Part shown: one piece after another, positions 147-63,621 of the stretch
Layout: the number at the start of each line of letters is the position of its first letter
Numbering within the stretch: position 1 is the first letter of the stretch
From: Candidatus Hodarchaeota archaeon
Lineage (GTDB): Archaea > Asgardarchaeota > Heimdallarchaeia > Hodarchaeales > Hodarchaeaceae
Assembly (NCBI GenBank): GCA_048887065.1
Contig: JBHLKC010000001.1
Span: 1,264-65,263 of the forward strand
Length of the DNA stretch: 64,000 nt
Reading direction: 5' to 3'
Notes under the pieces: model-generated
Databases searched by the model: none
The model's input: only the letters and a program-made list of their open reading frames with translations
Told to the model about the DNA's origin: nothing
Translations under genes and position numbers: made by a program

Positions 147-1226
147 TTAGGAATTATTAAAGAAATTATCAAGAACTACCTTTTGAGAATCTATTAAATT
201 GTACTTTGTAAAGGTTATCAAATGATCTAAATGCTTGATCCATGAGGGTGTCATCTTGTTTGGAAAACAATCCTGTAACTCTTTTAGAACATCTAATAGA
301 GTTGATAATGTATTACTTTTTGTAAATCGATAAACTGAATCAATAATATTAAAAAAATCAGTTGTTCCAAACACTTTATATTGATCTTGAATCAAAGAAG
401 GTTTCCATTCTTCCATAATTCGAGTTTTTATTAAATTGGAATATTTAGGATTAACTTCATAACCGATTCCTACTCTCCCTGACAATCTACAGACCTTTAG
501 TGTTGTTCCAGAACCTAAAAACGGATCCAGAACAGTTTCTCCTATAGCAGTATGCATTCGTATTAAACGGTACGGAATTGCTTCTGGAAAAGGCGCAGAA
601 TGACCAAATCTATTCTGGCCTTTAGAATCAATTTTAAAAACTGGAGAGATATCATCCCAGATACATCTTACTGCCCAGTGTCGCCATTCGGATTTTGTAA
701 GTAAACTTTGATCTTGGATAGGTTTTGAGATTTTTCTTGTTTTTCCAGGTTTGACCCAGACAAATATTTGTTCAAATCCAGTATTTGATGCAATATTTGT
801 TGGTTTTGGATAGCTTCCCCAAGAAACATTGGATACATATTCAGCTTTATCCCAATAATGCATCCCTGAAAGAAATAGATTATTCTCTCGCATAAAACGT
901 TCAATATCAAACATAATATTTTGGATCATGCGTCTTCCAAATCCAGATCGACTGCTTTCAATTGGTAATGGTTGAACATTGATAGCTATCTTGCCATTTG
1001 GTTGTAGGACGCGTATACATTCTGTCCAAACTCTATTTAAAGATTTAATATATTCTTTATAACTTTGGCCAAATCCTATTTGCTCTCCACCATAATCACG
1101 AACACTCCAATAAGGGGGGGATGTTACTACAAGAGTGATCGATTCTGATGGAATCTCTTCCATGTTTTCGGACGATTTAAAATAAATTGTTTGGTCTGCT
1201 ATCTCCATCTTATCCGATTCAATCAT
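147..1226 (-). CDS. DNA methyltransferase (N6-adenine/N4-cytosine, beta-class) with about 80-aa C-terminal extension
   Basis: SPPY catalytic motif (motif IV, ...LVVTSPPYW...) lies before the AdoMet motif DPFLGSGTT, which is beta-class order. 359 aa. Overlaps the next gene by 8 nt. Confidence 0.8.
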   Translation of the reverse strand: MIESDKMEIADQTIYFKSSENMEEIPSESITLVVTSPPYWSVRDYGGEQIGFGQSYKEYIKSLNRVWTECIRVLQPNGKIAINVQPLPIESSRSGFGRRMIQNIMFDIERFMRENNLFLSGMHYWDKAEYVSNVSWGSYPKPTNIASNTGFEQIFVWVKPGKTRKISKPIQDQSLLTKSEWRHWAVRCIWDDISPVFKIDSKGQNRFGHSAPFPEAIPYRLIRMHTAIGETVLDPFLGSGTTLKVCRLSGRVGIGYEVNPKYSNLIKTRIMEEWKPSLIQDQYKVFGTTDFFNIIDSVYRFTKSNTLSTLLDVLKELQDCFPNKMTPSWIKHLDHLITFTKYNLIDSQKVVLDNFFNNS

Positions 1227-1800
1227 TGGTTTTTTCTCCAGATAGGATCTTCTCCAGATTAAAAGTGTCTTCTTTATACTTTGATTGTCTCCAATAAATG
1301 GGATTGTATTTTTTTAAGTCAAAAGACCAATCATTAATGATTTCGGGGTCAATCCCTATTGCTACTACTTCTCCAATAAACAAATCATGATCTCCAGTTG
1401 GAATTATTCTCTTTAATTTGCATTCCAGATTAATTAAACACTCTTTGATTCGTGGAGCATTGATCCTGAGTGAAGCTTCCATCGTAAATCCAGCCTGTGA
1501 CACTTTCTGTGGTTCATCGTGACCTGATACCCGCCCAATGTAATAACTTGCATTAATAAGACGAGTATTAGGTATATTAATTACAAACTCTTCTTTTTGT
1601 TTGATTAGACCATGTGAATAACGTTTTTTTGTAATCAAAACTCCTATAAGAGGTGGATCAGCCGATAAAGGCGTCGACCAAGCTATTGTTAGCGCATTTG
1701 GTTCATCTAAAGTCCCTGATGAAACTAAAATTGTTAATCTTGGATAAAGAAATCTGTAAGCAATAGTTAAATTCTCAATTAATTGTTTCATTATGATCAC
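1219..1800 (-). CDS. flavin reductase-like (FMN-binding split-barrel) protein
   Basis: 193 aa. The NALTIAWSTPLS..PPL.GV pattern is typical of Flavin_Reduct domain proteins. Family-level assignment from memory. Confidence 0.55.
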   Translation of the reverse strand: MIIMKQLIENLTIAYRFLYPRLTILVSSGTLDEPNALTIAWSTPLSADPPLIGVLITKKRYSHGLIKQKEEFVINIPNTRLINASYYIGRVSGHDEPQKVSQAGFTMEASLRINAPRIKECLINLECKLKRIIPTGDHDLFIGEVVAIGIDPEIINDWSFDLKKYNPIYWRQSKYKEDTFNLEKILSGEKTND

Positions 1801-3752: not shown

Positions 3753-4893
3753 TATTAGAAAAATGAAAATATCAAAAGAAGGATTCAGAATAATACAAAA
3801 GAATTATATTTTCAAAAATATCGCGCTGATTCAAAAGATAATTTGTGATTCAAACCTATTGCATTTTTCAAATTATCAGACAATTGAGAGGTCAAGAATG
3901 GTAGATCCACAGATTATTAACCAGATTATCGAGATTCTGTTATCGAAAATTGAATCAAAGGATCAAGAACAAGGGCGATTGTTGGTTCACGATGATTTTG
4001 AGAAATACGATTCACGGATTAATCTTTGGGCTATCCGAGAAAACATTAGAGACCTTAAAGAAACAACTATTACGGATTTAGACGACTTTCCTGGTGTGGA
4101 AGTCAAAGTAACTTATGCTCCTCCTATGTTTTTTACAGACGTTTTACAGGGCAAAAATGTTGCTTATTGGCAAGTAGCTACAGTCATTCGATTGTTGAAA
4201 AATTGTGAAATTATTTTTGATCCCAATGGAAAGATGCTTCAATGGGTAGAACAGGCTCCTCACATTGGGTGGAATTCTGAGACAATTGAGCTAAAGCGTC
4301 AAACAACTAGGTTGTTACTGGAAAGAATGAACAATCGAATTCGAGATGATATGATAGCAGATGCCTATATCTGGTTAATTAAAGCAGCAGAAGAAGCTAT
4401 CTGTGTCCCCCTAATGATTCAGAATGCATTCGATGTTGGTACCGCCACACTTATGCTGGATGCAGTAAAAGAATTGGATGAAGAAATCTATGATTTCTTT
4501 ACCAATCTGTTGCAGATTAAAGCAATTTCCCCTGATAAGCTTGAAAAAGCTAGAAAAGAGCTCGAAAATCTTGCAGATCATTTATATAAAAATAATATTA
4601 AAACAGACCGTGAAATGTGGATTCTTGCTGCATTTGTATCTATTAACGAATCTGAAAGACGTTTAAATCAGTGTTTAAAAACTGATAACCCAGAAGAGGC
4701 CAATAAACTTTTTGAAACAGCTATAGGTGAGCTTTGGCAAGCTTATTTCCTTGTTGCTCAAAATCCAAAGTTAGATATAAAATTGGATCCTTGGGTTGTA
4801 AGTTCTTTCTGGCGGTGGTTTGGATTCCCAGAACTAGATGAAAATTGGTTATTAAATCATGCCAAACGAGTAGAAGAGCTAATTAGTACTTAA
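3718..4893 (+). CDS. hypothetical protein (likely true start at 3763 MKISKEG or 3898 MVDPQ)
   Basis: Long ORF with coding-like composition and no recognisable motif. The 5' end overlaps the upstream EamA gene, so an internal start is more likely. Confidence 0.4.
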   Translation: MIYPTISQRLISIRKMKISKEGFRIIQKNYIFKNIALIQKIICDSNLLHFSNYQTIERSRMVDPQIINQIIEILLSKIESKDQEQGRLLVHDDFEKYDSRINLWAIRENIRDLKETTITDLDDFPGVEVKVTYAPPMFFTDVLQGKNVAYWQVATVIRLLKNCEIIFDPNGKMLQWVEQAPHIGWNSETIELKRQTTRLLLERMNNRIRDDMIADAYIWLIKAAEEAICVPLMIQNAFDVGTATLMLDAVKELDEEIYDFFTNLLQIKAISPDKLEKARKELENLADHLYKNNIKTDREMWILAAFVSINESERRLNQCLKTDNPEEANKLFETAIGELWQAYFLVAQNPKLDIKLDPWVVSSFWRWFGFPELDENWLLNHAKRVEELIST

Positions 4894-4971: not shown

Positions 4972-5898
4972 TCATTCACTTGAATTAAACCATTCCCATG
5001 TTTTTTGTATACCGAATTCTAATTCAGTTTTAGGACTCCAATTCAAGTATTTTTTGGCTTTTATTGATTCTAATGCTATATTTTTAACATCACCAGGTCT
5101 TGGATTACTAAATTTTTTATGTGCGGAAATATTTGTGACTTTCTCAATGATATTTATTAATTCCAAAAGATTAGTCTGTTTTCCTGTTCCTGCGTTAAAT
5201 ATATCTATTACTGATGAATTTATTGCTTTAATACAGATATCTGCGATATCTTTCACATAAATATAGTCCCTAGTATCTGTTCCATCTCCAAAAATTTCCA
5301 AAGGAAGTCTTTTCTTTAGATTTCCTAAAAAAATTGAGATGACACCTGCTTCGCCTAAAGGATCTTGACGTGGCCCATATATGTTTGCTGGCCTGATAAT
5401 CGAATAAGAAAGGTTATGGATTCGATGAAACAGCTGAAGGTACTTCTCACCTACTAGTTTACTAAGGCCATATGGTGAAATAGGTTCCTCTGCTGTAGAT
5501 TCCGATACTGGTAAATGTAGAGGTTCCCCGTAAATTGCTCCTCCAGTAGAAACATAAACAAATCTCTTTACCGAACTAATGCAAGAAGCTTCTAAAAGGT
5601 TAATTATACCTTCAATATTTACAGAAGCGTCATAAGCGGGTTCACGTACAGATCTGTTTACCGATATTTGGGCAGCTAAGTGAAAAACATAATCCACGTC
5701 ATTTATTGCTTTTTCTACAATTTCAGGATTACGAATGTCTCCCTCAATGAGCTTAATGTGTTTTTCAACAACCTTCAGGTTTCTTCGTTTTCCAGTGCTG
5801 AAGTCATCCAAACAGACCACATTATGGTTATTTGCTATAAGTTCTTCAATTAAATGACTACCTAGGAATCCAGCCCCACCAGTAACTAAACAATCCAT
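4972..5898 (-). CDS. NAD-dependent epimerase/dehydratase (UDP-sugar 4-epimerase-like SDR)
   Basis: N-terminal Rossmann motif VTGGAGFLGSHL, catalytic YxxxK (SPYGLSK). 308 aa. Confidence 0.85.
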   Translation of the reverse strand: MDCLVTGGAGFLGSHLIEELIANNHNVVCLDDFSTGKRRNLKVVEKHIKLIEGDIRNPEIVEKAINDVDYVFHLAAQISVNRSVREPAYDASVNIEGIINLLEASCISSVKRFVYVSTGGAIYGEPLHLPVSESTAEEPISPYGLSKLVGEKYLQLFHRIHNLSYSIIRPANIYGPRQDPLGEAGVISIFLGNLKKRLPLEIFGDGTDTRDYIYVKDIADICIKAINSSVIDIFNAGTGKQTNLLELINIIEKVTNISAHKKFSNPRPGDVKNIALESIKAKKYLNWSPKTELEFGIQKTWEWFNSSE

Positions 5899-10750: not shown

Positions 10751-11135
10751 TCATCACTAGAAAATCTTCATTGATAATAATATTAGTTTTTCACTGTCAC
10801 ACTACTAAACTCTCTTGCTTCTCTTGACAAGTTTGAGGCAAGAAAAAGTGCTAATCGTCGGTCATTCAAGTAAAGAAATGAAAGCCTACCAAAATTTTAT
10901 CTCAGACATAAAACAACACCCACGATAAGATCACTCCTGCAACTATTGGAATTTTCGCCGTTTTTGTCGCTGCAAACATTTTACACTCCACTCTCGTGAA
11001 CCAGCTCCATCCACCTGCCGATTCCTAAAAAATAAGTTCAGTAGAGGGGGCCTTTTCCACTCCTTTTTTTACTGTATATACAAACTTTTACTTTAACAAC
11101 CCTGATTTTTAAAAAGAACCTCTTAGCTTTTTTCA

Positions 11136-12398
11136 TTGGAAACCTTAAAAATGGGAATTACAGAAATTTTCGGTACTAAAGGAACCCAACTGAAGGGTAA
11201 ACGAATTCTAGTTGGTGTTACAGGCTCTATAGCTGCTATTGAAGTTCCTCATTTAATTCGAGAGATTTTGAGATATTCAGGTGACCCTATTGTTGTACTT
11301 TCGGAAGAGGCGGTTAGATTAGTTGCTATTGATGCACTAACATGGTGTATGGACAAAGAACCTATAACCAAAATTTCTGGAATCTCGGAACATGTCAAGT
11401 GGGTCTCTCATCCCGATTATAAAGTTGATTTATGTATTATTTGTCCAGCAACAGCAAATACTATCGCAAAACTTGCCAATGGTATTGCAGATGGGCCTGT
11501 AACATTAGCTGCTTTAGCAATAATTGGAGCTAAAATTCCCCTCTTAATTATACCTGCAGCTCATACTGTTTTATTAGAAAATCCAATTTCCAGAAAGAAT
11601 ATTTCATATCTTGAACAACTTGATGTAAAATTCATATCAGCTCCTGAGACTGAAAGTAAATACAAATTTCCTCCTCTAAACCAATTAATGGAAAAAATTA
11701 TTAATTTGGTCAATCCCTCTCTTCCGCTTCAAGGGGAAAAAATATTGATAACAGGGGGCGCTACAAGAGAATACTTGGATGATATTCGATTTATTTCTAA
11801 TCCTTCAACTGGCCTCTCAGCCCTACAGGTTACGAAAGCTCTCTATAGCCTAGGAGCTGAAGTTTCGCTAATTCTAGGTGAAGGACACAACATCGATTTA
11901 AAAGGATGTGCTTTTTCAGCTAAAATAGTCAGATCAACCTCGGATATGTATGATGCTGTTATGGAAGAGCTTTCTAATACTCATTATAATATTCTAGTCT
12001 CTGTTGCAGCAGTTTCAGATTATCATCCCCCGTATCAAACTGGAAAAATCGCTTCACGACAAACTAACTTAAAAATTGATTTAATCCCTACAGTTAAGAT
12101 ACTAGAAAAAGTTCGTGACAAATTTCCTGAATTATTCATTGTAGGCTACAAGGCTGAAGTAGGAATTTCTAAGGAAGAATTACAAAAAAGAGGCGAAAAG
12201 TTTCTAGAAAATAACAATCTCCAAATCGTTTGTGCAAATTGGGTAGGTGAACCAACAAAAGGATTTGTGTCTAAAACTAATGAAGTATTAGTTATTCGCC
12301 CAAATAGACCTGTTCTGCATCTTAAAGGATCTAAAACAGAACTTGGATATCAAATTGCTGAAGTAATTGCAGAAGAGGTCAAGAAGGAAAGTGATTGA
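11136..12398 (+). CDS. coaBC: bifunctional phosphopantothenoylcysteine decarboxylase / phosphopantothenate-cysteine ligase
   Basis: 420 aa. N-terminal flavoprotein domain (GKRILVGVTGSIAA, PATANTIAKLANGIAD) plus C-terminal DFP/CoaB domain (ITGGATREYLDDIRFISNPSTG). Confidence 0.85.
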   Translation: METLKMGITEIFGTKGTQLKGKRILVGVTGSIAAIEVPHLIREILRYSGDPIVVLSEEAVRLVAIDALTWCMDKEPITKISGISEHVKWVSHPDYKVDLCIICPATANTIAKLANGIADGPVTLAALAIIGAKIPLLIIPAAHTVLLENPISRKNISYLEQLDVKFISAPETESKYKFPPLNQLMEKIINLVNPSLPLQGEKILITGGATREYLDDIRFISNPSTGLSALQVTKALYSLGAEVSLILGEGHNIDLKGCAFSAKIVRSTSDMYDAVMEELSNTHYNILVSVAAVSDYHPPYQTGKIASRQTNLKIDLIPTVKILEKVRDKFPELFIVGYKAEVGISKEELQKRGEKFLENNNLQIVCANWVGEPTKGFVSKTNEVLVIRPNRPVLHLKGSKTELGYQIAEVIAEEVKKESD

Positions 12399-22426: not shown

Positions 22427-23158
22427 TTAATTGTCTCGTATATAACGAGCTGGAGAACCCGCATAAACAGTATTAGAGGGGATTTTTTGATTCTTTTTGA
22501 CAACAGAATTGACTCCAATGATAACATTGTCTCCAATCTCGGCTCCAGGCGCAATTATCGTATTTCCCCCGATTGTCACATTTTTACCGATTTTAACTGG
22601 AGAGATTGTTAGATATCGGGATTCGGTAACATGTGATGCAATGATAGCCCTGAGTCCAATAAATGAATTATCTCCAATAGTTACCAAATACGAATCAATC
22701 ATTGTTCCTGCTGACAGATAAACGTTCTTACCAACTTTCAATCCATATAAGCGTAAAAATTTTCCCAACAACAGCGAATACAAATGTGGAATAAAACTAA
22801 AAGCCTTTAGCATGCTCTTAAAGATGCTTGGGGACACTATAGCAACACTATATAGCATTGCTTCTTTAGAATTGTGATGAAATCTCCCAGGCGTGAGTTT
22901 AGGAAGAAAAATTCGGCATACTACTTGCGAATGTAAAATACCATAAATAATCGTGGAGATTAAGTAGAGAATTGGTAATGATAATGCAATTAGTAACCAG
23001 AGTGCAAAATCATGGACGGTAAGCATTAATAAATAAACAAAGAAAAATTCTGGAATGAAAACTGCCATAAAGAGAATTGCAGTAAAGAAAAAATAAAGAG
23101 GTAAGCGGAGATTAACTGGAACTATCAAATCCAAACTTCCCAGGTGAATAACGTTCAT
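22427..23158 (-). CDS. membrane-anchored hexapeptide-repeat (left-handed beta-helix) acyl/acetyltransferase-like protein
   Basis: 243 aa. Two N-terminal TM helices, then C-terminal hexapeptide repeats (IGDNSFIG, IGKNVTIGGNTIIAPGAEIGDNVIIGVNSVV). Starts 19 nt downstream of the roadblock gene. Confidence 0.6.
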   Translation of the reverse strand: MNVIHLGSLDLIVPVNLRLPLYFFFTAILFMAVFIPEFFFVYLLMLTVHDFALWLLIALSLPILYLISTIIYGILHSQVVCRIFLPKLTPGRFHHNSKEAMLYSVAIVSPSIFKSMLKAFSFIPHLYSLLLGKFLRLYGLKVGKNVYLSAGTMIDSYLVTIGDNSFIGLRAIIASHVTESRYLTISPVKIGKNVTIGGNTIIAPGAEIGDNVIIGVNSVVKKNQKIPSNTVYAGSPARYIRDN

Positions 23159-23177
23159 TTATTCATGTTCTTTTTCT

Positions 23178-23981
23178 TTATTGCGGGATTACTTCTCTGA
23201 TTTGTTTAACAGTTTCGGAAATTCTCACAACGAGAGATTCAAGTCGTGCTGTTGGGTTACCATCCACACAAAGTAATAATCCTTCACTAATTTTATAGGC
23301 CACTAAATTAGTAGCTTCGGATGAGACCACCAAATATCTTAAATTACGCATATAAGTGCTGACATTTAAGATTCGAATAGCCCCAGCCATTTGCAGATGA
23401 TCCATATTGTACTCAATAAGGATGTCTCCTGTAAAAGAAATTATCATAGCTCCCCTTACAACTCCTTCTTCACTTTTTACGAGTTTTCTTAAGTAAAATT
23501 TAGCAGCATTTTTTGAAGAAGTAAGCATTTCTCTTGTCTCACCACTGAAGATTTCATCTACCTCTTCAGTGAAATTGGAAAACATATCTGTGTCTACAAT
23601 ATCAATCTTCTTGATATCATCGCTATATTTGGATAAAAATAAACTCGCAATTGTTGTTAGTTTGAATTGCATATCCATAGTACTGACAAGGGGAGATGCT
23701 AAGATTGCAAATACCAGTTCATCTCTTTCAATGAATGAAAAGCGGTTATCGGTCATATCCACCACTCGAAGGTCGCTTAAAGATGATTTCGCAAACGAAA
23801 ACATTGCAGTTAAGAAAGCAACCACAAGATGGGCATCAGGTGTTTTTCCTTCATTGGTCTCATAAGATCGCGTGAATAAGGTCTCACCTGATTCTTTTCG
23901 GAAAATAAAAAAAGCCTTTATTTGTTTAAATAATTCTAATGTCAACATTCTTCCCTCATAAGAATTCCTTCGCCTTAACAT
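23178..23981 (-). CDS. tandem roadblock/LC7/longin-like domain protein (MglB/Lamtor-like GTPase partner)
   Basis: 267 aa in two ~120-aa halves, each with a beta-beta-alpha-beta-beta-alpha pattern. The second half (VRGAMIISFTGDILIEYN ... EGLLLCVDGNPTARLESLVVRISE) matches the classic roadblock signature. Overlaps the GTPase gene by 26 nt. Confidence 0.6.
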   Translation of the reverse strand: MLRRRNSYEGRMLTLELFKQIKAFFIFRKESGETLFTRSYETNEGKTPDAHLVVAFLTAMFSFAKSSLSDLRVVDMTDNRFSFIERDELVFAILASPLVSTMDMQFKLTTIASLFLSKYSDDIKKIDIVDTDMFSNFTEEVDEIFSGETREMLTSSKNAAKFYLRKLVKSEEGVVRGAMIISFTGDILIEYNMDHLQMAGAIRILNVSTYMRNLRYLVVSSEATNLVAYKISEGLLLCVDGNPTARLESLVVRISETVKQIREVIPQ

Positions 23982-24540
23982 TCAGGATGTTGATAGTTAA
24001 TGTCCGAAAGGCTTCGTTAACATTTTCTCCAGTCTTTGCAGAAGTTTCGATATAATCGATAGCATGCATATGTTGTTGGACTTCTTTGGCTCTTTTTTTC
24101 GTAACTTCCCTTTTCAAATCGGATTTATTACCAATGAGGAATGATAGAGACTTTGGAGATACTCGCAATACTTGACTTTGCCATCGTTCCTGGATTGCAT
24201 TAAGTGTCTCTTTGCGTGTTAAATCAAAAACATAGAAAGCTCCTGATGCTCCCTTTAAGTATAAATGGGAATACGAGACATGTCTCGCTTGACCAGCAAT
24301 ATCCCAAACCTGAAGTGAAACATTTCGGAGGATGTCGTTATTATCAATGAATTTAACCTTCTTCGTCAAAAAATCCACTCCCAAACTCATACTATATTCC
24401 TCCTTAAATTTATTTTCAATGAATCTTAATATTAAAGACGTTTTTCCAACCATGCCATCTCCAAGAAGAAGAACTTTTAATACATGCTTATATTCTGTTT
24501 GTGATTTAACCAAACCCATATCTCCACGGATTGAACTCAT
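23956..24540 (-). CDS. Ras-superfamily small GTPase (Rab-like)
   Basis: G1 GDGMVGKTS, switch I SLGVDF (Rab TIGVDF-like), G3 WDIAGQ, G4 GNKSD, G5 ETSAK. 194 aa. Confidence 0.85.
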   Translation of the reverse strand: MSSIRGDMGLVKSQTEYKHVLKVLLLGDGMVGKTSLILRFIENKFKEEYSMSLGVDFLTKKVKFIDNNDILRNVSLQVWDIAGQARHVSYSHLYLKGASGAFYVFDLTRKETLNAIQERWQSQVLRVSPKSLSFLIGNKSDLKREVTKKRAKEVQQHMHAIDYIETSAKTGENVNEAFRTLTINILNVKAKEFL

Positions 24541-24952
24541 CTAGGTGATTTTGAACAATCATTAATTTTCAATTAACTGTTATAAATATTATACTCTTAG
24601 GATAAGTAGAGTTCCTTTCTTTGAATTTAAATGATCACCTAAAAAGTGATCGTGTTGATTTTATTTCCATAGTAAATAGTAATTCTCCTAAGTATAATGT
24701 ATTGTTTCCGATTCCTCCTCGGTAGAGTTCTTTCTGAATTTTTAATAAATATTTTTCAGTCTAAATAAGAGTAGATAAAAATCTTAATGCAAAAGAAGAA
24801 ATGTATGAGAAATGATAAAGAAAACGTAAGCTAATTTCTTTTAACACAATAATTAATTAACTCAGGTTAGAGTATTTGTGTTTAATGAACCTTATATATA
24901 TTTGAAATTACATATATTCAAGAAAATTATTGAGACCTAAACCTAAATACAA

Positions 24953-25261
24953 GTGTTAGCAAATAAAAAGTATATTTTTTCACTTAGCATATTAAGATTA
25001 AAAAAAAGCTTGTTGGTGGATTTAAGTTTGATCGATTCAGAATCCTCCGGAACAGAAAAATGGATAGAGATTGTTTTGAAAGAATTGAAAAGCGCTAGCA
25101 CAGTTGAAATTATTGATCGGGTAAGCATATTTAACCAAGATTGCGCTGATCGGATTCCAATGGTTCTAACCCAGATGAGGATGGATGGTAAAATAACTTA
25201 TAAGGTAGTTTCTTCTAAAAATGGGGAAAAGAAACAGATAGTGTGGGAATTGATCGATTGA
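24953..25261 (+). CDS. hypothetical small protein (possible winged-helix)
   Basis: 102-aa ORF between divergent operons. The C-terminal half has a weak wHTH-like pattern. The N-terminal 25 aa may not be translated. Confidence 0.25.
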   Translation: MLANKKYIFSLSILRLKKSLLVDLSLIDSESSGTEKWIEIVLKELKSASTVEIIDRVSIFNQDCADRIPMVLTQMRMDGKITYKVVSSKNGEKKQIVWELID

Positions 25262-25274
25262 ACAAATCTCATTG

Positions 25275-26957
25275 CTAAATAGGCATTTCTTCTCCTTCAT
25301 AGGGAATATATACGTTTGTACTTTTTGCTAGAGAATATTTTTTTGAGATTACTTCATTTCCTAAATGAATTAGGGCAAGTCGCTTAGTTAAAGGCGCTAA
25401 TTTCATTGCTTGATGAAAATTTAAATGAATATCAAGTTTAGTATCAAAAAAATTACACTCAATTATGGACAAATCTGTGTTTTTAACCAAGAGAATTAAA
25501 TTATCTGTCCATCCAGTATCTCCACTGTATGCAATCGTGATTTTATTTGTTTCTAATCTATAACCTTGTGATTCAGGATTATGTTGCATGTCAATCGCTT
25601 TAATGGTAATCCCATTTAATTCTAAAGGTTGTTGGGGGGAAATTACTTTATAATGACATGCAAAAGGTTTTTTCTCATTTGCAATATTTTCGTACAAAGC
25701 GTGATATAGAGATTTGACCTTATCCTCAATATTATGAGGACCTATTATACTTAAGGGTTTTTTTCTATTTTGCTGTATGCTCGCTTCAAGAAGTATAAAG
25801 GGTAAACCTGCAAAATGATCCCCATGAAAATGTGATATCAATATAAGATCTATATCATCTGTTTTTCTTCCTGCTTTTTTCAATGCAGGTAAAGTATGTG
25901 GTCCACAATCTAACAGAATTCCATACTGATCTAGCTCAATAAAAACTCCCGCACTCTTATAAGCACTTGATGCAAACGCATCACCTGTTCCTAAAAATAA
26001 AATATTCGCTTTTGGGGGAGTTTGGGGTAAAATTCTTGTGCCAACATTTTTCCCATTCAGTGCCTCTTCAAATTCTTCAATACCCACAACCCAGCAATTT
26101 ATAAAGCTATTCGCTAATTCTACTAAATTTCTAAGCTTTCCTCCCATAGATTCCGTTACATCGTATTCTTCGATAGATTTTTCATTACTAAATGCTAGCA
26201 GATTATTCTTAGAGTCGTAACAAATAAAATCATGATTATTTACTTCAATTTTTGAAATAAATTGAGCGTCATCATATTTAGGATCCTTGGTATAAATTCC
26301 TGTTTTTTTACCTTTAACATCTGTTAAGAAAATCGCATCAGATATTTGAGTATGAGTGAAACGCCTCATTAAGGCCGAAGGTACAATGTCTCCTGAGAAT
26401 ACCTTCCACCCAGTAGGAGTATGACCAACATCTCCGTAGAAAATGGGCACAGCATTTGTATTGTTAATTATCTGTTCAAGCACGGAAAGATCTTGAGTAA
26501 TGGCTTCCTTTGATGAAATTTGATCTGTAGGGGCTCCGCTCATTATTTGATGAGAAGAAATTGAAATAGCATTTATCCCATGCCTTATAGCAGATGCAAC
26601 TACAAATTCGTTTTGAATATTTACAGCAAGTTTAACAATCGAATAACCTTGTTGGATATTTGAATATTTTTCTAGAAGATGTAAAACCAAAGAGTGGCCA
26701 ATGGAACCTGCTCCATGGACCAGGATTATTTTTCTTTGGGGATTTTTGCTCAAAAAAGAAGATAATGTCGAGAAAACATCATTTAGTTTTTGAAAGTTCA
26801 TTAACTTCGAAATTTTTTCGTTTAAGTCTTTGAGAGATCCATTCCCCTCCATAAAACGATCAATCTCTTTTAAATAATCCTCAATCCCCTCCTTGTTTCT
26901 TTTGTACGTAATTAAACTTCCACCAAGCTTAACGATTAAGACTTGTTTTTTTCTCAT
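25275..26957 (-). CDS. fusion protein: isopentenyl-phosphate-kinase-like amino-acid-kinase domain + metallo-beta-lactamase-fold hydrolase domain
   Basis: N-terminal IPK/FomA-type motifs (LIVKLGGSLIT, LVHGAGSIGH, TDVKGKKTGIYTKDP, ESMGGKL). C-terminal MBL motif ISHFHGDHFAG with downstream His/Asp ligands. 560 aa. Confidence 0.7.
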   Translation of the reverse strand: MRKKQVLIVKLGGSLITYKRNKEGIEDYLKEIDRFMEGNGSLKDLNEKISKLMNFQKLNDVFSTLSSFLSKNPQRKIILVHGAGSIGHSLVLHLLEKYSNIQQGYSIVKLAVNIQNEFVVASAIRHGINAISISSHQIMSGAPTDQISSKEAITQDLSVLEQIINNTNAVPIFYGDVGHTPTGWKVFSGDIVPSALMRRFTHTQISDAIFLTDVKGKKTGIYTKDPKYDDAQFISKIEVNNHDFICYDSKNNLLAFSNEKSIEEYDVTESMGGKLRNLVELANSFINCWVVGIEEFEEALNGKNVGTRILPQTPPKANILFLGTGDAFASSAYKSAGVFIELDQYGILLDCGPHTLPALKKAGRKTDDIDLILISHFHGDHFAGLPFILLEASIQQNRKKPLSIIGPHNIEDKVKSLYHALYENIANEKKPFACHYKVISPQQPLELNGITIKAIDMQHNPESQGYRLETNKITIAYSGDTGWTDNLILLVKNTDLSIIECNFFDTKLDIHLNFHQAMKLAPLTKRLALIHLGNEVISKKYSLAKSTNVYIPYEGEEMPI

Positions 26958-27256
26958 CCACTTTTCACCAATACATTGCTACCAGACTTATGAATTGAGT
27001 TTTATTACTTAAGACGGGGTATATTATAAGGCTAAAATACTAGCTATGTCTAGATACCTTCGTGTAACGACATGGCACTATTACTGTTCCAGTAGGAATG
27101 CCTTGTATATTCACTTGCTAGCTACTCTAATTGATTAAAAACCTAAATTTCTTTCCTAAAAAATACCTACTGCTGATGAGTGCTGCTCATAGATCAGAAG
27201 AATTTTTTTATTAGAATATTATTCTAATAAAATCATCTAAGACGAGGCTTAATCTC

Positions 27257-28903
27257 ATGAAACTAACTCTAAGAGTTTTCATTATTTTGCCTACGAGCAT
27301 TGTATGGTTAATAACAGCTCTCTTTTTACTTGTTTATGGATTTGAACTTATTCTTTTTGTGTTTCCAAGTAATGTGTATGATTTAGTTTTGAATCCAGGA
27401 ATTTTCTTATTATTCATAACAGCATGTTTAGCTACATTAGCATTATATACCACTGGCCATGCTATTGACAAGAATACGAAATTATTGAAGCCCCTAACAA
27501 AAATATCGCTTTTCATGAGCGGGGTTTGCTTACTATTGATAGTAATTGGTACCGAATATCAAATATTTTTGTTTCTTGGACTCCCTGGTCTTGGAATTTC
27601 TTTGGGTATTCTAGCTACAACATCTGGTGTTGTCTTTGGTTACTATTCTGAAATTGATAATAGGGGTCGTCTTTATGCTTTAGCAATCATTCTTAGCGCT
27701 CTCTTTTCTATCTTTTCTATTATTCTGTTAAACTCTCTTAATATTGATTTTCGGATTCATTTATTCCTTATTGGGCTCATATCAATTTTATCGGCAATTG
27801 TTATTCATTATATTTCTCGTTCAATTGAACCATGGAGGAATGATCCCTACCCGACCTCTATTATTAGAATATTTGACAGAAGATCTGTTAAAGCCTATTT
27901 AGCTGCCCATTTTTTCATATATTTAATGATTGGTATCGCTTTTTCCACTATTTCTCGATTGGGACTAGCAGAGGATTTGACAATTTTCTTAGATTTATTT
28001 ATAATAGAGAAATTTAGCATAGATCAGAATACATTTTTCTGGCTTTTGGTATTCATTGGTGATCTGTTCTTCATTTGGCCAATGGCTCTACTTAGTGATA
28101 AAATAGGTAGAAAGACAATTATGGTATTAGGTTGTTATGGGATAGTTTTCGCTGCTATTATTGTTGGATTAGGTACTGACATTCTTTCATATTATTTATC
28201 TGCATTCATTTTGGGCGGAAGTTTTGCTACTATGCACCCTTCAATCGATAGCGCAGTATGGGCTGATTTGAGTCCCCTTGATTCTTTAGGACGTTATTAT
28301 GCTTTAGGATTTATTTCTCTTCTTCAAGGGATTGGAGTTGGTTTAGCTATAGGCCTTCTTTTTTCTTCATTTATCGGAAGTGATATGGCTACAATTAGCT
28401 ATGTTCTTATTGGACTTGCGATCCTGGGCATGTTTTTTCTCTTCTTTGTTGTAGATTCCTTTATGCCCATTGATATTTTTCTTTTGTTATTATCCAGAAG
28501 TGGAATGTTAATTTTTAGTCATGATTTCCAGCGAGGTGAAGAAATATCAGACAAAGACTTAACACTTGTGACTGGAGCTTTATCGGCAATCAATACAATT
28601 TTTACCGAGACTATTCATGAACAAGAAGCTGCTTTAGATTTAGTTAGACACGGTAACGTGTTCATTGTGCAATCCAAAGTTTCTACGGAGAAAGGAGAAC
28701 TATTAGCGACAGTTTTTGCCAATAAAAATGATCCTGAGATTTATCGAGGTGTACGCTTGTTCCTAACAAAATTCGCTCACACATTTGAAGACGAACTTCA
28801 GACTTGGGTTGGCCGAAGTGATGCTTTCTTAAAAGCGATTGATATAGCTGAGGATGTATTTGGTCCTCTGATTCCTTCAAAAACATTTTCAACCCCCTCT
28901 TAA
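27257..28903 (+). CDS. polytopic MFS-like membrane protein fused to a C-terminal cytoplasmic roadblock/longin-like domain
   Basis: 548 aa. About 12 TM helices with MFS motif-A-like LSDKIGRKTIMVLG. The C-terminal ~130 aa (MLIFSHDFQRG..LTLVTGALSAINTIF..LDLVRHGNVFIVQSKV..ELLATVFANKNDP..RLFLTKFAHTFEDEL) align with the N-terminal domain of the 23178-23981 protein. Confidence 0.6.
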   Translation: MKLTLRVFIILPTSIVWLITALFLLVYGFELILFVFPSNVYDLVLNPGIFLLFITACLATLALYTTGHAIDKNTKLLKPLTKISLFMSGVCLLLIVIGTEYQIFLFLGLPGLGISLGILATTSGVVFGYYSEIDNRGRLYALAIILSALFSIFSIILLNSLNIDFRIHLFLIGLISILSAIVIHYISRSIEPWRNDPYPTSIIRIFDRRSVKAYLAAHFFIYLMIGIAFSTISRLGLAEDLTIFLDLFIIEKFSIDQNTFFWLLVFIGDLFFIWPMALLSDKIGRKTIMVLGCYGIVFAAIIVGLGTDILSYYLSAFILGGSFATMHPSIDSAVWADLSPLDSLGRYYALGFISLLQGIGVGLAIGLLFSSFIGSDMATISYVLIGLAILGMFFLFFVVDSFMPIDIFLLLLSRSGMLIFSHDFQRGEEISDKDLTLVTGALSAINTIFTETIHEQEAALDLVRHGNVFIVQSKVSTEKGELLATVFANKNDPEIYRGVRLFLTKFAHTFEDELQTWVGRSDAFLKAIDIAEDVFGPLIPSKTFSTPS

Positions 28904-29056
28904 TCATTAAAAATCACTCTTGTTTTGAACCTAAGGTTTATACCTTAACTTGGGATTTCGATACTGCTTTTTCATTGAACCAATCTAAAAATGGAATGGA
29001 GAAGTTTTTTTAATCTAATCAAACTCTGATTAAGAAAACAAAAGGAATGTCTAAAA

Positions 29057-30724
29057 GTGAGACAAAAGGACTATTTAATCATCTTATTGCCAAATATTTT
29101 CTCTTGGTTGTTAGCTTCTCTTCTTCTTCTAATTTACTCATTTGATATAATAGAATTTGTTGAATCGTCACCCAAAAACCCTTTTGCAGGATGGGGAGTT
29201 CTCATCTTGGGTATTATTCTTATTATCGTGATCTTAGTATTGTACTTTACTGGTGTTCTTCTCGATCAAAAACCTGTTTATCTAAGAACTTTAACCTTTT
29301 TAGGAGTACTGGGGAGTTCTATCATGGTTATATTATTTGTTGTATTGATTAAAACTATCTTTGTGGTAATTACATTGGCAGGTTTAGCCTTATTCTTCGG
29401 TCTATTGTTAACAAGTAGTGGGACTTTATTTGCAGGATTAACAGATATGTGGAAGCGAGGGAGAACATACTCCTATATAATATTCATATTTATCTTTTTC
29501 TCCATGATTAGCATCCTTTTGGGAGGTGTGATTTCTCATCAAGCTCAGCAATCTGATCCACAAAGGGTGAATCCATTAAGCTATAGTTGGATGAGTATTC
29601 TACCTGGAATCGGGGTTTTTGGCGTTTTCATTGCTATAATATTCCTTTTTGTAACACGAAACATGGGAGTTCCATGGGTTCCAGATGCATGGCCTACAAA
29701 ATTCAAGAAAATTGTTGAACGTAGATCTGTTCGTGCATACTTAATTACTCACTTTTTTATTTACTTGATGCTTGGTATTGTAATTGCAGCATTTCCCAAA
29801 ATCGGAGAAACTTTTGAGATTTTGAAGGATTTCTCATTTACGATAAATATTCCGAATTTAGGGATGTTTGATCCCCCTCTTGATAAATTATGGTGGTTTA
29901 TTGTTTTAGTTGGTGATTTAATAGGTATAATTCCAGCTGGCTATTATGCTGATCGTAATGGTAGGAAAAATTCGATAATAACTGCAATCTATGGAATAGT
30001 TTTTGCAGCATTAATATTTGGTCTTGAGAAAAGCCCTGAGAGTTTTTTTATCGCTGCTTTTGTAATTGGTGTATCTTTCGCTTTACTCCACTCCACTCTT
30101 GACTCTTCCTTATGGGCTGACTTATCTCCTCGTGATGGTTTAGGCCGTTATTATGCTTTAGGCTTCATTTCGCTTGCATTAGGCCTAGGAGTAGGATCAG
30201 GGTTAGGTCATTGGGTACTTAATAATGTCGAAATCATTACTTACATTTTAATCATATTGGCGATCATTTCTGCTTTTCCTCTCTTTTGGGTATCTGATAG
30301 TTATAAGCCCCTAGATTTTTCATTGTTGTTAGTTATCGAAGAAGGTGGATTACCAATATTCGATTATTCATTCCATAAGAAATTGGATGTATCTGTTGAA
30401 TTAACTTTATTATCAGGAGCTTTGACTGCAGTTAGCTCATTTATGAGTGAAACACTAAAAGAAAAAGGAGAATTAAATCTCGTAAGACATGGAAGTCATT
30501 TTATCTTAACTGATAGAGTTGGTGGTATCGCAGCTGCGGTTTTTAGTAATAAACAGGATCCAGAACTTCGGAAATCTCTGCGTGAATTTTTAGAACTTTT
30601 TTGTATTAAATTTTCTAATGAGCTCAAAACTTGGAATGGAGCACGAACTGTATTTGATGATGCTGTTGAACTAGCAGAGGAAGTATTCGGACATCTTGCT
30701 CCATCTACCAACCTTGAGGATTAA
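29057..30724 (+). CDS. paralog of 27257-28903: MFS-like membrane protein with C-terminal roadblock/longin-like domain
   Basis: 555 aa with the same architecture. Motif A YADRNGRKNSIITA, shared WADLSPxDxLGRYYALGFISL segment, C-terminal LPIFDYSFHKK..LTLLSGALTAVSSF..LNLVRHGSHFILTDRV..IAAAVFSNKQDP..LREFLELFCIKFSNEL. Confidence 0.6.
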   Translation: MRQKDYLIILLPNIFSWLLASLLLLIYSFDIIEFVESSPKNPFAGWGVLILGIILIIVILVLYFTGVLLDQKPVYLRTLTFLGVLGSSIMVILFVVLIKTIFVVITLAGLALFFGLLLTSSGTLFAGLTDMWKRGRTYSYIIFIFIFFSMISILLGGVISHQAQQSDPQRVNPLSYSWMSILPGIGVFGVFIAIIFLFVTRNMGVPWVPDAWPTKFKKIVERRSVRAYLITHFFIYLMLGIVIAAFPKIGETFEILKDFSFTINIPNLGMFDPPLDKLWWFIVLVGDLIGIIPAGYYADRNGRKNSIITAIYGIVFAALIFGLEKSPESFFIAAFVIGVSFALLHSTLDSSLWADLSPRDGLGRYYALGFISLALGLGVGSGLGHWVLNNVEIITYILIILAIISAFPLFWVSDSYKPLDFSLLLVIEEGGLPIFDYSFHKKLDVSVELTLLSGALTAVSSFMSETLKEKGELNLVRHGSHFILTDRVGGIAAAVFSNKQDPELRKSLREFLELFCIKFSNELKTWNGARTVFDDAVELAEEVFGHLAPSTNLED

Positions 30725-30795
30725 ATGATTGATATTATCTATTGGGAAGGATCTAATGATCCCTGTTTTTCATATAAATTCAAAAAGAGAAAGGT

Positions 30796-31476
30796 GTGAA
30801 AATTTTGGTTTTATGGATAGTTTTTCAGCTTATATTGCTAGCAGCAGTGTTGTTTGTTGGTGTATACTATTTCGAATTTTTTTATAATGGCTTTGCGATG
30901 AAAAATTTGTTCATATCATTATTTTTCTCAATTTCTTTGACATTATTCACATTTCTATTCTTTCTAACTTGTTTACATAAATTGGCAAGAATGCTGATGA
31001 AAAATGAGGAAGGGATTCTAACTGGAAGGGATAGAGTACTGTGGGGGATAACCATGACAAGTGCTGATACAGCATATTATTTAGTCAATAAATTGTTTAT
31101 AAATCAAATTTTTCCAGCGTTGTTCTACAAGTTATTTGGAGCGAAGTTTGGTAAAAGAGTCGCGATTTTTACTAGATTGTGGGACGTTGATTTAATGGAA
31201 ATTGGAGACGACACGTCAGTGGGTACAAACTGCATTATAGGAGCCCATGCTATTTCACAAGGGGAATTATTCCGCAAACGGATAAAAATCGGCAAGAATT
31301 GTACTATTGGAGCTGGAACAATTATATTGCCTGGTGTAACTATAGAAGATAATGTGATTGTAGCAAGTAATTCTGTTATACCATCCAATCGTGTTTTAAG
31401 AGCAAACTCAATTTACGCAGGAAGCCCAGTGAAACGGATAAAAGATTGGAATGGTGAAAGCGTGTGGGAATCTTAA
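30796..31476 (+). CDS. membrane-anchored hexapeptide-repeat (left-handed beta-helix) transferase-like protein, paralog of 22427-23158
   Basis: 226 aa. Two N-terminal TM helices, then IGDDTSVGTNCIIGAHA ... IGKNCTIGAGTIILPGVTIEDNVIVASNSVI, with a C-terminal SIYAGSPVKRIKD tail matching TVYAGSPARYIRD of the paralog. Confidence 0.6.
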   Translation: MKILVLWIVFQLILLAAVLFVGVYYFEFFYNGFAMKNLFISLFFSISLTLFTFLFFLTCLHKLARMLMKNEEGILTGRDRVLWGITMTSADTAYYLVNKLFINQIFPALFYKLFGAKFGKRVAIFTRLWDVDLMEIGDDTSVGTNCIIGAHAISQGELFRKRIKIGKNCTIGAGTIILPGVTIEDNVIVASNSVIPSNRVLRANSIYAGSPVKRIKDWNGESVWES

Positions 31477-62454: not shown

Positions 62455-63621
62455 ATGGATGAATGGTCAGCAGTTGTACTTGCTGGTGGGATTGGTTCCC
62501 GTCTCTATCCGTTAACAATTGAAATCCCCAAACCTATGGTTCCAGTAGCTAATAAACCAATGATTGATTACAATTTAGAACTCCTTAGAAATGCTGGAAT
62601 AAATGGAAAGATAATAATCGTTACCAAATATTTGCATGAGGAGATACGTAAGTATTTTAAGGAAAGTGAGCATTTCAACGATCTAGATATTATAATCCCT
62701 AAGGTTGATCCGTTGGACACGGCTGATGCAGTACGAAAGGTTTCAGATTATATTAACACAGATAATTTTATCGTTTCAATGGCTGATATAGTAACCAACC
62801 TTCCATTAACTGATTTCATGGCTTTCCATCGAGAAAAAGATTGTATTGCTAGTATTACTTTGAAAGATGTTTCCTACCCTCGTGCTTTTGGTGTGATAAT
62901 GTTAAATCAAGATTCACGAATTGTCCTTTTTCTAGAAAAACCATTACCACAAGAATTGGGATTAGCAACTCTAACTTTTGCGAAAAAGGAAACCATTCGT
63001 TTGCAGTCTAACCTTGTCAACACTGGTATTTATGCCTTTAAACATAAAGTTTTGGATATATTAGATACTTTAACAGACCTGATGGACTTCGGTAAACATG
63101 TCTTTCCCTACTTAGCACGAGAATACGGCATTTATGGCTATGAACGTTTAGATTATTATTGGATGGATGCAGGTAATCCTCAAACATATCTCTATACTAA
63201 TTGGGATGTGCTTAGACGTTGGTCTTTTCCGTATTTTCCAAAAGCGACATGGGAAGAAGATAGCATCTGGTGGGATGGTTTAAGGCCTGAAATCCCTCCA
63301 ACTGTACGAATTGTTGCACCAACAGTGATGGGATCAAATATTTCTTTGAATAACAATACGACAATTGGTCCTCTTGTAGCGATTGGAGAAAATGTAAATA
63401 TTGGTGAAAATACTATAATTCAGTCCTCGGTTGTTTGGGATAATGTAGAAATAGGTAGAAATGTCAGCATCAAGGAAACTATAATCTGTAACGATGTTTC
63501 AATACCTGATGATTCTAAATTAACTTCAGGAACAGTAATTGCTCCTCATACGCACTTTAAGACTGCTCTTTCTACAAAAAAAGGTCAAATTGTAGAATCG
63601 GTGGTAGAGAACTTGAGGTAA
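62455..63621 (+). CDS. sugar-1-phosphate nucleotidyltransferase with C-terminal left-handed beta-helix domain
   Basis: N-terminal VLAGGIGSRLYPLT and KPMVPVANKPMI NTP-transferase motifs. C-terminal hexapeptide repeats (IGENVNIGENTIIQSSVVWDNVEIGRNVSI). Confidence 0.8.
   Translation: MDEWSAVVLAGGIGSRLYPLTIEIPKPMVPVANKPMIDYNLELLRNAGINGKIIIVTKYLHEEIRKYFKESEHFNDLDIIIPKVDPLDTADAVRKVSDYINTDNFIVSMADIVTNLPLTDFMAFHREKDCIASITLKDVSYPRAFGVIMLNQDSRIVLFLEKPLPQELGLATLTFAKKETIRLQSNLVNTGIYAFKHKVLDILDTLTDLMDFGKHVFPYLAREYGIYGYERLDYYWMDAGNPQTYLYTNWDVLRRWSFPYFPKATWEEDSIWWDGLRPEIPPTVRIVAPTVMGSNISLNNNTTIGPLVAIGENVNIGENTIIQSSVVWDNVEIGRNVSIKETIICNDVSIPDDSKLTSGTVIAPHTHFKTALSTKKGQIVESVVENLR

Follow-up and report, generated by a model that had tools for sequence, protein, structure and literature searches.

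A Hodarchaeales locus with two divergent gene units that share longin domains and membrane-anchored hexapeptide-repeat proteins

Results

Organisation of the locus

The subject of this study is a locus of about 9 kb in the genome of a Candidatus Hodarchaeota archaeon (GCA_048887065.1, contig JBHLKC010000001.1). It lies within a stretch of 64,000 nucleotides (positions 1,264 to 65,263; hereafter the window) with a GC content of about 34%. An initial annotation, made from the sequence alone, described eight open reading frames (ORFs), most of them in two divergent units, each pairing a roadblock-domain protein with a membrane-anchored left-handed beta-helix (LbH) protein, and proposed that the whole forms one GTPase-regulated system. 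All eight ORFs are present at the coordinates and on the strands then given, and wherever a genome carries the block, the units stand next to each other in divergent orientation (Table 1). The minus-strand unit encodes a Rab-like GTPase, a longin–roadblock protein (Lng) and LbH1, in which transmembrane (TM) helices precede a beta-helix (TM-LbH); the plus-strand unit encodes two transporters of the major facilitator superfamily (MFS1 and MFS2) followed by a second TM-LbH protein, LbH2. Each of the window's three longin-type genes is inside this locus, as are its two TM-LbH genes and the one GTPase that was detected.

Table 1. Features of the locus, with positions in the window
Feature	Position	Strand	Basis or remarks
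GNAT N-acetyltransferase frame, 160 codons	21853..22332	-	directly downstream of LbH1; Pfam, orthologs
LbH1: two long TM helices, conserved linker, left-handed beta-helix acyltransferase domain (predicted activity)	22427..23158	-	Hexapep, hydrophobicity, TIGR02353
Lng: longin (N-terminal) and roadblock (C-terminal) domains, 256 aa	23178..23948	-	orthologs, AlphaFold model
Rab-like small GTPase	23956..24540	-	Pfam Ras; PDB matches; G1-G5 motifs
AT-rich divergent intergenic region, 24.5% GC	24541..24952		between GTPase operon and small conserved gene; composition, sequence
Small conserved protein	24953..25261	+	no Pfam or NCBIfam match
Fusion of IPK-like (amino-acid-kinase fold) and tRNase-Z-like MBL halves	25275..26957	-	AA_kinase E 2.5e-18; Lactamase_B_2 E 2.8e-22
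MFS1: 12-TM MFS transporter with C-terminal cytoplasmic longin domain	27257..28903	+	tail aa ~400-544, nt ~28454-28888
MFS2: paralogous MFS transporter with C-terminal longin domain	29057..30724	+	tail aa 413-554, nt ~30293-30718
LbH2: two TM helices, left-handed beta-helix acyltransferase domain (predicted activity)	30796..31476	+	71 nt after MFS2

The GTPase and its neighbour Lng

The GTPase is Ras/Rab-like, as first described. It scores 145 bits against Pfam Ras (cutoff 21.6; E 1.5e-42), its best PDB matches are Rab7 and Thor-Rab (~1e-29), with Sec4 also among them, and the G1-G5 motifs (GDGxVGKT, WDIAGQ, NKxD, ETSAK) are kept in nine orthologs. Translation probably starts at M8 (24519). 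The C-terminus, ILNVKxKKFL, has no cysteine in any of the nine orthologs and thus lacks the geranylgeranylation motif of eukaryotic Rabs.

Its neighbour had been taken for a roadblock protein. The roadblock domain is indeed there, at the C-terminus, but it is preceded by a longin domain that had been overlooked; the product is a two-domain protein whose length we set at 256 aa because its orthologs start at the equivalent of M12. In an AlphaFold model built on 21 orthologs (mean confidence score, pLDDT, of 70) the N-terminal domain has the longin topology beta-beta-alpha-beta-beta-beta-alpha, and the C-terminal domain the roadblock topology alpha-beta-beta-alpha-beta-beta-beta-alpha. Pfam Robl_LC7 matched neither half at E up to 10, the N-terminal half reached 18.8–20.1 bits against Fuz_longin_1 (cutoff 26.1), and the Lng profile found chance matches only among PDB sequences. 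The family is narrow, every match being at least 63% identical.

Ten loci show both genes (the window, L005-L007, L009, L010, L024, L025, L031 and L044; L numbers denote loci compared with the window), and in all ten Lng lies 7–28 nt from the GTPase gene (7 nt in the window). Because they are adjacent wherever both are visible, the two probably form a cognate pair. Genome layout rarely helps to match Asgard GTPases to their regulators, according to a structural study (PMC10933270), and the GTPases of MK-D1 are reported as generally not operonic with roadblock or longin genes, which makes the pairing seen here notable. By analogy with known longin and roadblock proteins, Lng is predicted to be, most likely, a regulator or docking platform of the GTPase encoded upstream of it.

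The TM-LbH proteins

LbH1 and LbH2 each have an N-terminal hydrophobic region (aa 11-81 and aa 1-64, respectively) and a domain of Hexapep repeats (E 1e-13 and 6e-13; 50 and 48 bits, cutoff 27). For LbH1 the NCBI start is the TTG at 23128, which gives a protein of 233 aa. The proposal that the two are paralogs is borne out by 36% identity over the 146 aa of the beta-helix half (E 4e-27), but the relationship is distant: LbH2 scores 104 bits against a bacterial TM-LbH protein of 231 aa (P0075), with which it aligns over 226 aa, and 91 bits against LbH1. Since LbH2 is equally close to bacterial TM-LbH proteins, the paralogy is ancient. The same stand-alone architecture is found in bacterial proteins of 231–247 aa, in Bermanella and Omnitrophota. 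A similar C-terminal tail had been offered as a mark of the pair; its sequence, AGSPxxxIxD, is instead a general motif of the LacA/maltose-acetyltransferase family. Specific to the TM-LbH family is a conserved linker, FGxxHSQ...LPxIKPG...IFKSMLK.

Similarity to LacA and maltose O-acetyltransferases extends over the beta-helix half (E ~1e-14). H176 of LbH1 aligns with LacA His115 (PDB 1kqa), the catalytic residue of that enzyme, and does not vary among 21 sequences from archaea and bacteria. None of the family cutoffs for LacA, maltose acetyltransferase, WcaF, WbbJ or YvoF-type proteins was reached (57 against 347 for LacA; 57 against 300 for NF058585). The best NCBIfam match of both proteins is TIGR02353, the C-terminal membrane polymerisation domain of Pls/PosA synthetases, which make cationic homo-poly-amino acids; LbH1 aligns to it with aa 27-240, TM helices and linker included, at positions 249-454 of 695 (76.6 bits, E 1.4e-21), and LbH2 with aa 106-216 at positions 103-214 (58.8 bits, E 3e-16). 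The PosA domain comprises three repeats in pseudo-threefold arrangement, each made of paired TM helices, two further helices and a left-handed beta-helix of five turns (PMC10522769). By sequence, LbH1 and LbH2 (226–243 aa) resemble one such Pls/PosA repeat, to which each would correspond; we do not file them as members of that family because they are without adenylation and carrier domains and score far below its cutoff. Given that each protein resembles one PosA-type repeat, a homotrimer with six TM helices is expected. The positive-inside rule would place the beta-helix in the cytoplasm, and the soluble domains of all the proteins discussed here are expected to face the same way. The predicted activity is that TM-LbH proteins probably acylate a membrane-associated or lipid-linked substrate.

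Elsewhere in the window, a 388-aa ORF (62455-63621, plus strand) matches LbH proteins weakly (E 2.6e-5) and may be a third hexapeptide-repeat protein, of another type.

The longin-tailed transporters

MFS1 and MFS2 are paralogous over their full length (36% identity, E 2e-86). Against Pfam MFS_1 (cutoff 33.4) MFS2 scores 53.3 bits and MFS1 31.6 bits, slightly below; multiple hydrophobic segments and a DRxGRK-type motif are present, the motif A-like sequence of MFS1 being SDKIGRK. The Pfam match covers aa ~220-415 only, and we considered an architecture in which an unrelated six-TM part is joined to half an MFS protein. This was rejected: in a sister clade the MFS_1 match spans aa 27-367, and the proteins are therefore best described as a complete MFS transporter with a longin tail. 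They had been annotated as roadblock-fused; the tails, carried on 12-TM MFS proteins, are longin domains. Longin structures are the closest in fold, with the best structural matches among the TRAPP subunits Trs23 and Bet5 and the longin domains of Mon1 and Ccz1. The tails had no match in Pfam, their profile found chance matches only among PDB sequences, and MFS2 had no PDB sequence match. BLASTP gave no match between Lng and the MFS tail; profile comparison reveals a weak homology of the tail to the N-terminal domain of Lng (hmmsearch E 1.7e-5; hhalign E 8e-4 over 117 columns). A hidden Markov model (HMM) of the tail matches MFS1 at aa 400-544 (E 7e-52). A third MFS-longin paralog, P0223, apparently comes from the same metagenome-assembled genome (MAG), judging by its locus-tag prefix; it was not located on any contig.

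The tail belongs to a large family. Against 1.84 billion cluster representatives its profile matched at least 2,472 proteins at E<=1e-3, each representing a cluster at 50% identity, and 310 at E<=1e-10. The domain is C-terminal in six-TM proteins of ~370 aa and in proteins of ~715-780 aa with 8-12 TM helices; it also occurs in single-pass proteins with Ig-like ectodomains and KaiC-type ATPases, and as small stand-alone proteins. TM segments are predicted in 50 of the 62 matches examined, and in half of these 62 (31) the domain starts no more than 40 residues from the last TM segment; for the most part it sits close to the membrane, as the C-terminal portion of highly varied membrane proteins. 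Two members carrying an organism name were examined, and both are Asgard. No Pfam model covers the domain, and the literature searched held no description of a fusion between a longin domain and an MFS or other polytopic membrane protein. Fusions of longin to prokaryotic two-component signalling domains are frequent in Asgard archaea (10.1101/2020.10.19.343400).

Conservation of the block in relatives

Species-representative genomes were scanned with the family-specific N-terminal region of LbH1, which gave 19 loci, and metagenomes with the MFS tail, which gave 15; further loci came from contig look-ups. ORFs called in these loci were searched with the window proteins and with longin and roadblock HMMs. 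LbH1 follows Lng directly in seven of the ten loci, 19-49 nt downstream. LbH2 follows MFS2 directly in seven loci (spacing 10-71 nt) and is displaced in four, by a UbiA gene in L007, L010 and L044 and by a CoA-transferase gene in L029; in L031 it is absent after MFS2. MFS1 is absent in L024 and L031. The pairing of a roadblock or longin component with a TM-LbH protein, central to the initial annotation, is thus usually kept and is not obligatory: LbH1 is gone from L025 and L044, and LbH2 from L031.

Three records call for separate mention. L009 (the Heimdall bin272 chromosome record) has a masked run of N at ~5073-5324 that interrupts MFS1, and the truncation of MFS1 and absence of MFS2 and LbH2 there may partly be an artefact of the stored data. 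In L024 (B3_Heim) LbH1 comes after an inserted, unannotated gene of ~245 aa (4151-4888, minus strand), and in L016 an unannotated gene of 249 aa (732-1481, plus strand) lies between a longin-like gene and an LbH paralog; neither has a Pfam match. The idea that these two are further longin–roadblock paralogs was discarded, there being no similarity to Lng.

Collinearity with several Hodarchaeales and Heimdall MAGs runs over window positions ~11136-38896, and the flanks that share it include an M42 peptidase, a HEAT-repeat protein, an aminotransferase, a TPR protein and BtpA. Best conserved in this stretch are the GTPase, Lng and both LbH proteins (70-76% identity), and least conserved the TPR protein (31-36%) and the IPK-MBL fusion (48-58%). 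Because collinearity extends far past the locus, no particular functional meaning can be read from the juxtaposition of the units, whose conserved order is no more than shared ancestry would predict.

Paralogs outside the block

Genes of the LbH1 family outside the block (at most 57% identical) occur in ten contexts (L003, L004, L011, L012, L013-15, L016, L017, L018/19/21, L020 and L022/23), three of the paralog loci coming from genomes that also carry the block. The GTPase–Lng pair was found in none of the ten, and a GTPase gene lies within 10 kb of the paralog only in L004, where it is Arf-like and 1.5 kb away. Neither Lng nor MFS-longin neighbours were found in L013 and L017, which come from genomes with the block, or in L003, L004, L011, L012, L015, L020 and L022, from other Asgard lineages; no LbH, GTPase or Lng gene was found beside the other MFS-longin clades (L026, L032-L038, L045). 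The neighbours of the outside paralogs include a DtxR-type repressor, a racemase, a PLP decarboxylase, an O-methyltransferase, an HTH_10 regulator and a geranylgeranyl-reductase-like protein. LbH paralogs unlinked to roadblock or GTPase genes, an observation that the initial annotation had named as counting against its proposal, therefore exist, also in the same genomes; in favour of the proposal, a longin-type gene lies within two genes of the TM-LbH gene in two of the ten contexts. These are a 250-aa protein in L018/19/21 (hhalign against the MFS tail: probability 91%, E 1e-6) and a 171-aa protein in L016 (E 1.5e-4). In the same flanks, longin-type genes make up 2 of 38 genes near TM-LbH and 0 of 95 more distant ones (one-sided Fisher p=0.08), so that adjacency of longin and TM-LbH genes outside the block is suggestive and not significant.

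In L013-L015 and L022-L023 a gene for a DtxR-type iron-dependent repressor (Fe_dep_repr_C plus FeoA-like) lies divergent from the LbH1 paralog and directly upstream of it. The TM-LbH clade with this neighbour spans MAGs labelled as different Asgard phyla.

Several TM-LbH neighbourhoods relate to lipids. The UbiA genes between MFS2 and the LbH2-type gene (L007, 1629-2525; L010, 432-1397; L044, 11665-12540) have a counterpart in L011, from a MAG labelled Promethearchaeota, in which UbiA (10806-11852) follows the LbH1 ortholog and an EamA gene is also present. The UbiA of L011 and those of the LbH2-type loci are unrelated at the BLAST level, and two TM-LbH subfamilies are involved. In Bermanella (L042, 2961-12381) the TM-LbH gene stands 10 nt after a FadD11-like acyl-CoA ligase gene, surrounded by genes for an aminotransferase, a 382-aa GNAT-like protein, a hydrolase, a LysR regulator and an MMPL exporter; by its gene content it resembles a cluster for synthesis and export of a lipid or lipophilic metabolite. 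The UbiA genes are a hint of prenylated or lipid substrates for the TM-LbH enzymes.

Other genes of the locus

Both units had been described as ending in a TM-LbH gene. LbH1 and LbH2 are in place, but LbH1 is directly followed by a GNAT frame, missed at first, in a seemingly empty 748 bp. The frame matches Pfam Acetyltransf_7, 10 and 1 (E ~1e-13), with RimI as its closest NCBIfam match, and in L005-L010 its orthologs (39-46% identical) either overlap LbH1 or are no more than 45 nt away. GNAT is present in nine of ten loci and closes the minus-strand unit in most relatives, coming directly after Lng in L025 (H. mangrovi) and L044 (the Heimdall bin6 chromosome). That it substitutes for LbH1 in H. 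mangrovi was considered and rejected, since the window and L005-L010 have both genes, with GNAT after LbH1. In the window the codon aligned with the orthologs' methionine is AAA, with ATA adjacent; a non-canonical start, recent loss of the start or an assembly error are possible explanations.

The small ORF noted between the units is more than an ORF: it is a conserved gene, and homologous genes were found in twelve related loci. In five relatives compared, the ortholog in this place is 63-74% identical; orthologs are only 77-86 aa long, for which reason the true start probably lies downstream of the GTG. The fusion protein beside it was correctly recognised, both the AA_kinase half, similar to isopentenyl phosphate kinase (IPK), and the metallo-beta-lactamase (MBL) half being confirmed. 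It scores 86.3 bits against IPPK_Arch (NF040647; cutoff 120) and matches RNase_Z partially (E 3e-35); the fusion is kept in related loci wherever the position is readable, and probably stands outside both units. In Haloferax volcanii the conserved archaeal 'NZ' MBL HVO_2763 adjoins the isopentenyl phosphate kinase HVO_2762 (PMC3296008); the fusion may be a sign that the two are functionally connected.

The AT-rich region between the GTPase gene and the small gene is probably a promoter region. Upstream regions inspected by eye were uninformative in this AT-rich DNA. No tRNA genes were found in the gaps of the locus, and Rfam gave a single sub-threshold FMN match (23.6 bits, cutoff 66.2), which falls within the TPR gene and was taken as chance.

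Discussion

The locus combines a small GTPase, longin domains in soluble and membrane-bound form and two membrane-anchored proteins of a predicted acyltransferase family. A central issue is whether these constitute one functional entity or several. We tentatively favour, at a probability of about 0.45, two neighbouring and separable operons within a long syntenic stretch of the Hodarchaeales, which share a longin theme. The minus-strand operon would comprise the Rab-like GTPase and soluble Lng as its cognate regulator or platform, in the manner of MglA/MglB or of longin-type guanine nucleotide exchange factors and GTPase-activating proteins, together with two variably present acyltransferases, TM-LbH1 and GNAT, as frequent but dispensable passengers. 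The plus-strand operon would comprise the two longin-tailed transporters and then an LbH2-type gene, with UbiA added in some relatives. The TM-LbH proteins themselves would be membrane-embedded acyltransferases facing the cytoplasm, assembled as homotrimers with six TM helices. It is plausible that the anchor-less GTPase docks onto the putative receptor offered by the longin tails of the transporters.

Several observations weigh against this proposal. The operon boundaries are drawn from spacing alone, and with synteny over at least 27 kb the conserved order may reflect relatedness and nothing more. LbH1 is dispensable, being absent from H. mangrovi and the Heimdall bin6 chromosome, and the GNAT frame, free of internal stops, has no ATG, GTG or TTG start. 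The model of Lng is of moderate confidence, and Pfam recognises neither longin nor roadblock domains at threshold. As to the enzymes, the scores against TIGR02353 are far under the family cutoff of 423 bits, no AMP-binding (adenylation) or carrier gene was found in the locus, and the suggestion of a lipid substrate draws on few neighbourhoods.

The reading put forward by the initial annotation is that the whole 9-kb locus is one system, in which the GTPase, acting through the longin and roadblock domains of Lng and of both transporters, switches both transport and membrane modification by the TM-LbH proteins. Several features are in keeping with it: the confinement to this locus of every longin-type gene of the window, together with its two TM-LbH genes and sole detected GTPase; the constancy with which the two units stand adjacent and divergent; the relationship between the MFS tails and the N-terminal domain of Lng; and the longin-type genes beside LbH1-family paralogs in L016 and in loci of the L018 type. 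A GTPase devoid of a lipid anchor would moreover need a membrane receptor, and a cytoplasmic position of all the soluble parts, as predicted, would suit such a system. Yet co-occurrence beyond shared gene order was not found. Collinearity runs far past the locus; LbH1, LbH2 and MFS1 have each been lost in genomes that keep the rest; paralogs of the TM-LbH and MFS-longin proteins live elsewhere without GTPase or Lng neighbours, save for the Arf-like GTPase of L004; the enrichment of longin neighbours outside the block falls short of significance (p=0.08); and the IPK-MBL and small genes that separate the units have no evident tie to either. We regard a single system as quite unlikely.

A different alternative severs the TM-LbH proteins from GTPase signalling altogether, treating them as acyltransferases of isoprenoid lipids or lipophilic metabolites whose proximity to longin genes is a by-product of synteny in a longin-rich lineage. 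The lineage is indeed rich: 130 Roadblock/longin and 94 small-GTPase gene families are recorded for Asgard archaea, and conserved neighbourhoods among them are rare (10.1101/2020.10.19.343400). UbiA adjoins TM-LbH of the LbH2 type in L007, L010 and L044 and the LbH1 ortholog in L011, a geranylgeranyl-reductase-like gene is divergent to the paralog in L018 and L021, an IPK-like gene sits within the block, the Bermanella homolog belongs to a cluster of acyl-CoA-ligase, GNAT-like, hydrolase and MMPL genes, and in most TM-LbH contexts the neighbours are metabolic or regulatory. No lipid-related neighbour is universal, however, and two features of the longin association count against this reading: in seven of ten genomes the 19-49 nt between Lng and LbH1 leave no room for a promoter, and in ~0.5 Mb of sampled flanks the HMM of the mfsC-type longin matched only genes adjacent to TM-LbH. 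We consider this alternative rather unlikely.

Two separable operons with a shared longin theme thus remain our preferred account. A bolder proposal would tie them together through the transporters: the longin tails of MFS1 and MFS2 might pair in the manner of TRAPP or Mon1-Ccz1 to create a membrane-fixed platform for docking or nucleotide exchange of the GTPase, with Lng as the opposing regulator, such that the state of the transporter would be coupled to the GTPase and through it to the acyltransferases. On this proposal the more than 2,400 clusters of tail domains would serve to place Asgard GTPases on membranes without prenylation. We hold it to be very doubtful. Were it true, the locus would represent a prokaryotic transceptor circuit that foreshadows eukaryotic signalling between transporters, Ragulator or longin platforms and GTPases; and if the tails do no more than bind GTPases, they would offer a simple, pre-eukaryotic route to the membrane and might be a forerunner of GTPase signalling coupled to transporters.

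The wider interest lies in the small GTPases and the roadblock or longin proteins of Asgard archaea, which number in the dozens: which regulator serves which GTPase, what they control and how GTPases without an anchor reach the membrane. The locus offers a candidate cognate pair, membrane-fixed longin domains and a large unannotated domain family. The acyltransferases carry a separate message: the repeat unit of Pls/PosA exists as an independent gene in archaea and bacteria, which bears on the origin of that enzyme.

Comparison with known systems places these elements at different distances. MglA/MglB-type systems and Asgard Rab-like GTPases with Roadblock or longin regulators (Tran et al. 2024, PMC10933270; Liu et al. 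2020, 10.1101/2020.10.19.343400) are the known kind to which the GTPase–Lng pair belongs. It differs from these in that the pair is tightly operonic, with two acyltransferase genes in the same unit; and set beside the Roadblock-Longin protein of Lokiarchaeota (PDB 8yqk/8yqg), Lng carries its longin domain ahead of the roadblock domain. A tight operon with a protein of this domain order is new, as are the MFS-longin fusions with their large membrane-anchored tail family and the stand-alone, single-repeat relatives of the Pls/PosA membrane domain.

With Pls/PosA the LbH proteins share the unit of TM pair, linker helices and left-handed beta-helix, and the threefold packing expected of them matches the PosA model (PMC10522769). 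They differ in having one repeat per polypeptide where Pls/PosA has three, and in the absence of an adenylation or carrier domain from both protein and neighbourhood. With LacA and maltose O-acetyltransferase (PDB 1kqa, 3srt), WcaF/WbbJ and YvoF-type proteins (NF058585) they share the beta-helix, the histidine and the C-terminal AGxPxRxI; LacA-type enzymes are soluble, whereas LbH1 and LbH2 add an N-terminal TM hairpin and the conserved linker.

For the transporters, the fusions share with other Asgard longin fusions partners that are not eukaryotic (10.1101/2020.10.19.343400); the structural neighbours of the MFS tails are TRAPP and SNARE longins, not NPRL2/3. The combination of membrane transporter, longin or roadblock fold and small GTPase also invites a general analogy with the nutrient-sensing assemblies of eukaryotes. 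There, a transporter, a longin/roadblock platform and small GTPases meet in SLC38A9-Ragulator-Rag, with FLCN-FNIP and GATOR1 as further assemblies of the kind, and longin domains build the Rab exchange factors TRAPP and Mon1-Ccz1. No homology of MFS1 or MFS2 to SLC38A9 was found. Compared with SLC38A9-Ragulator-Rag, the Hodarchaeales locus encodes a longin domain that is covalently fused to an MFS transporter, and a GTPase that is Rab-like rather than Rag-like.

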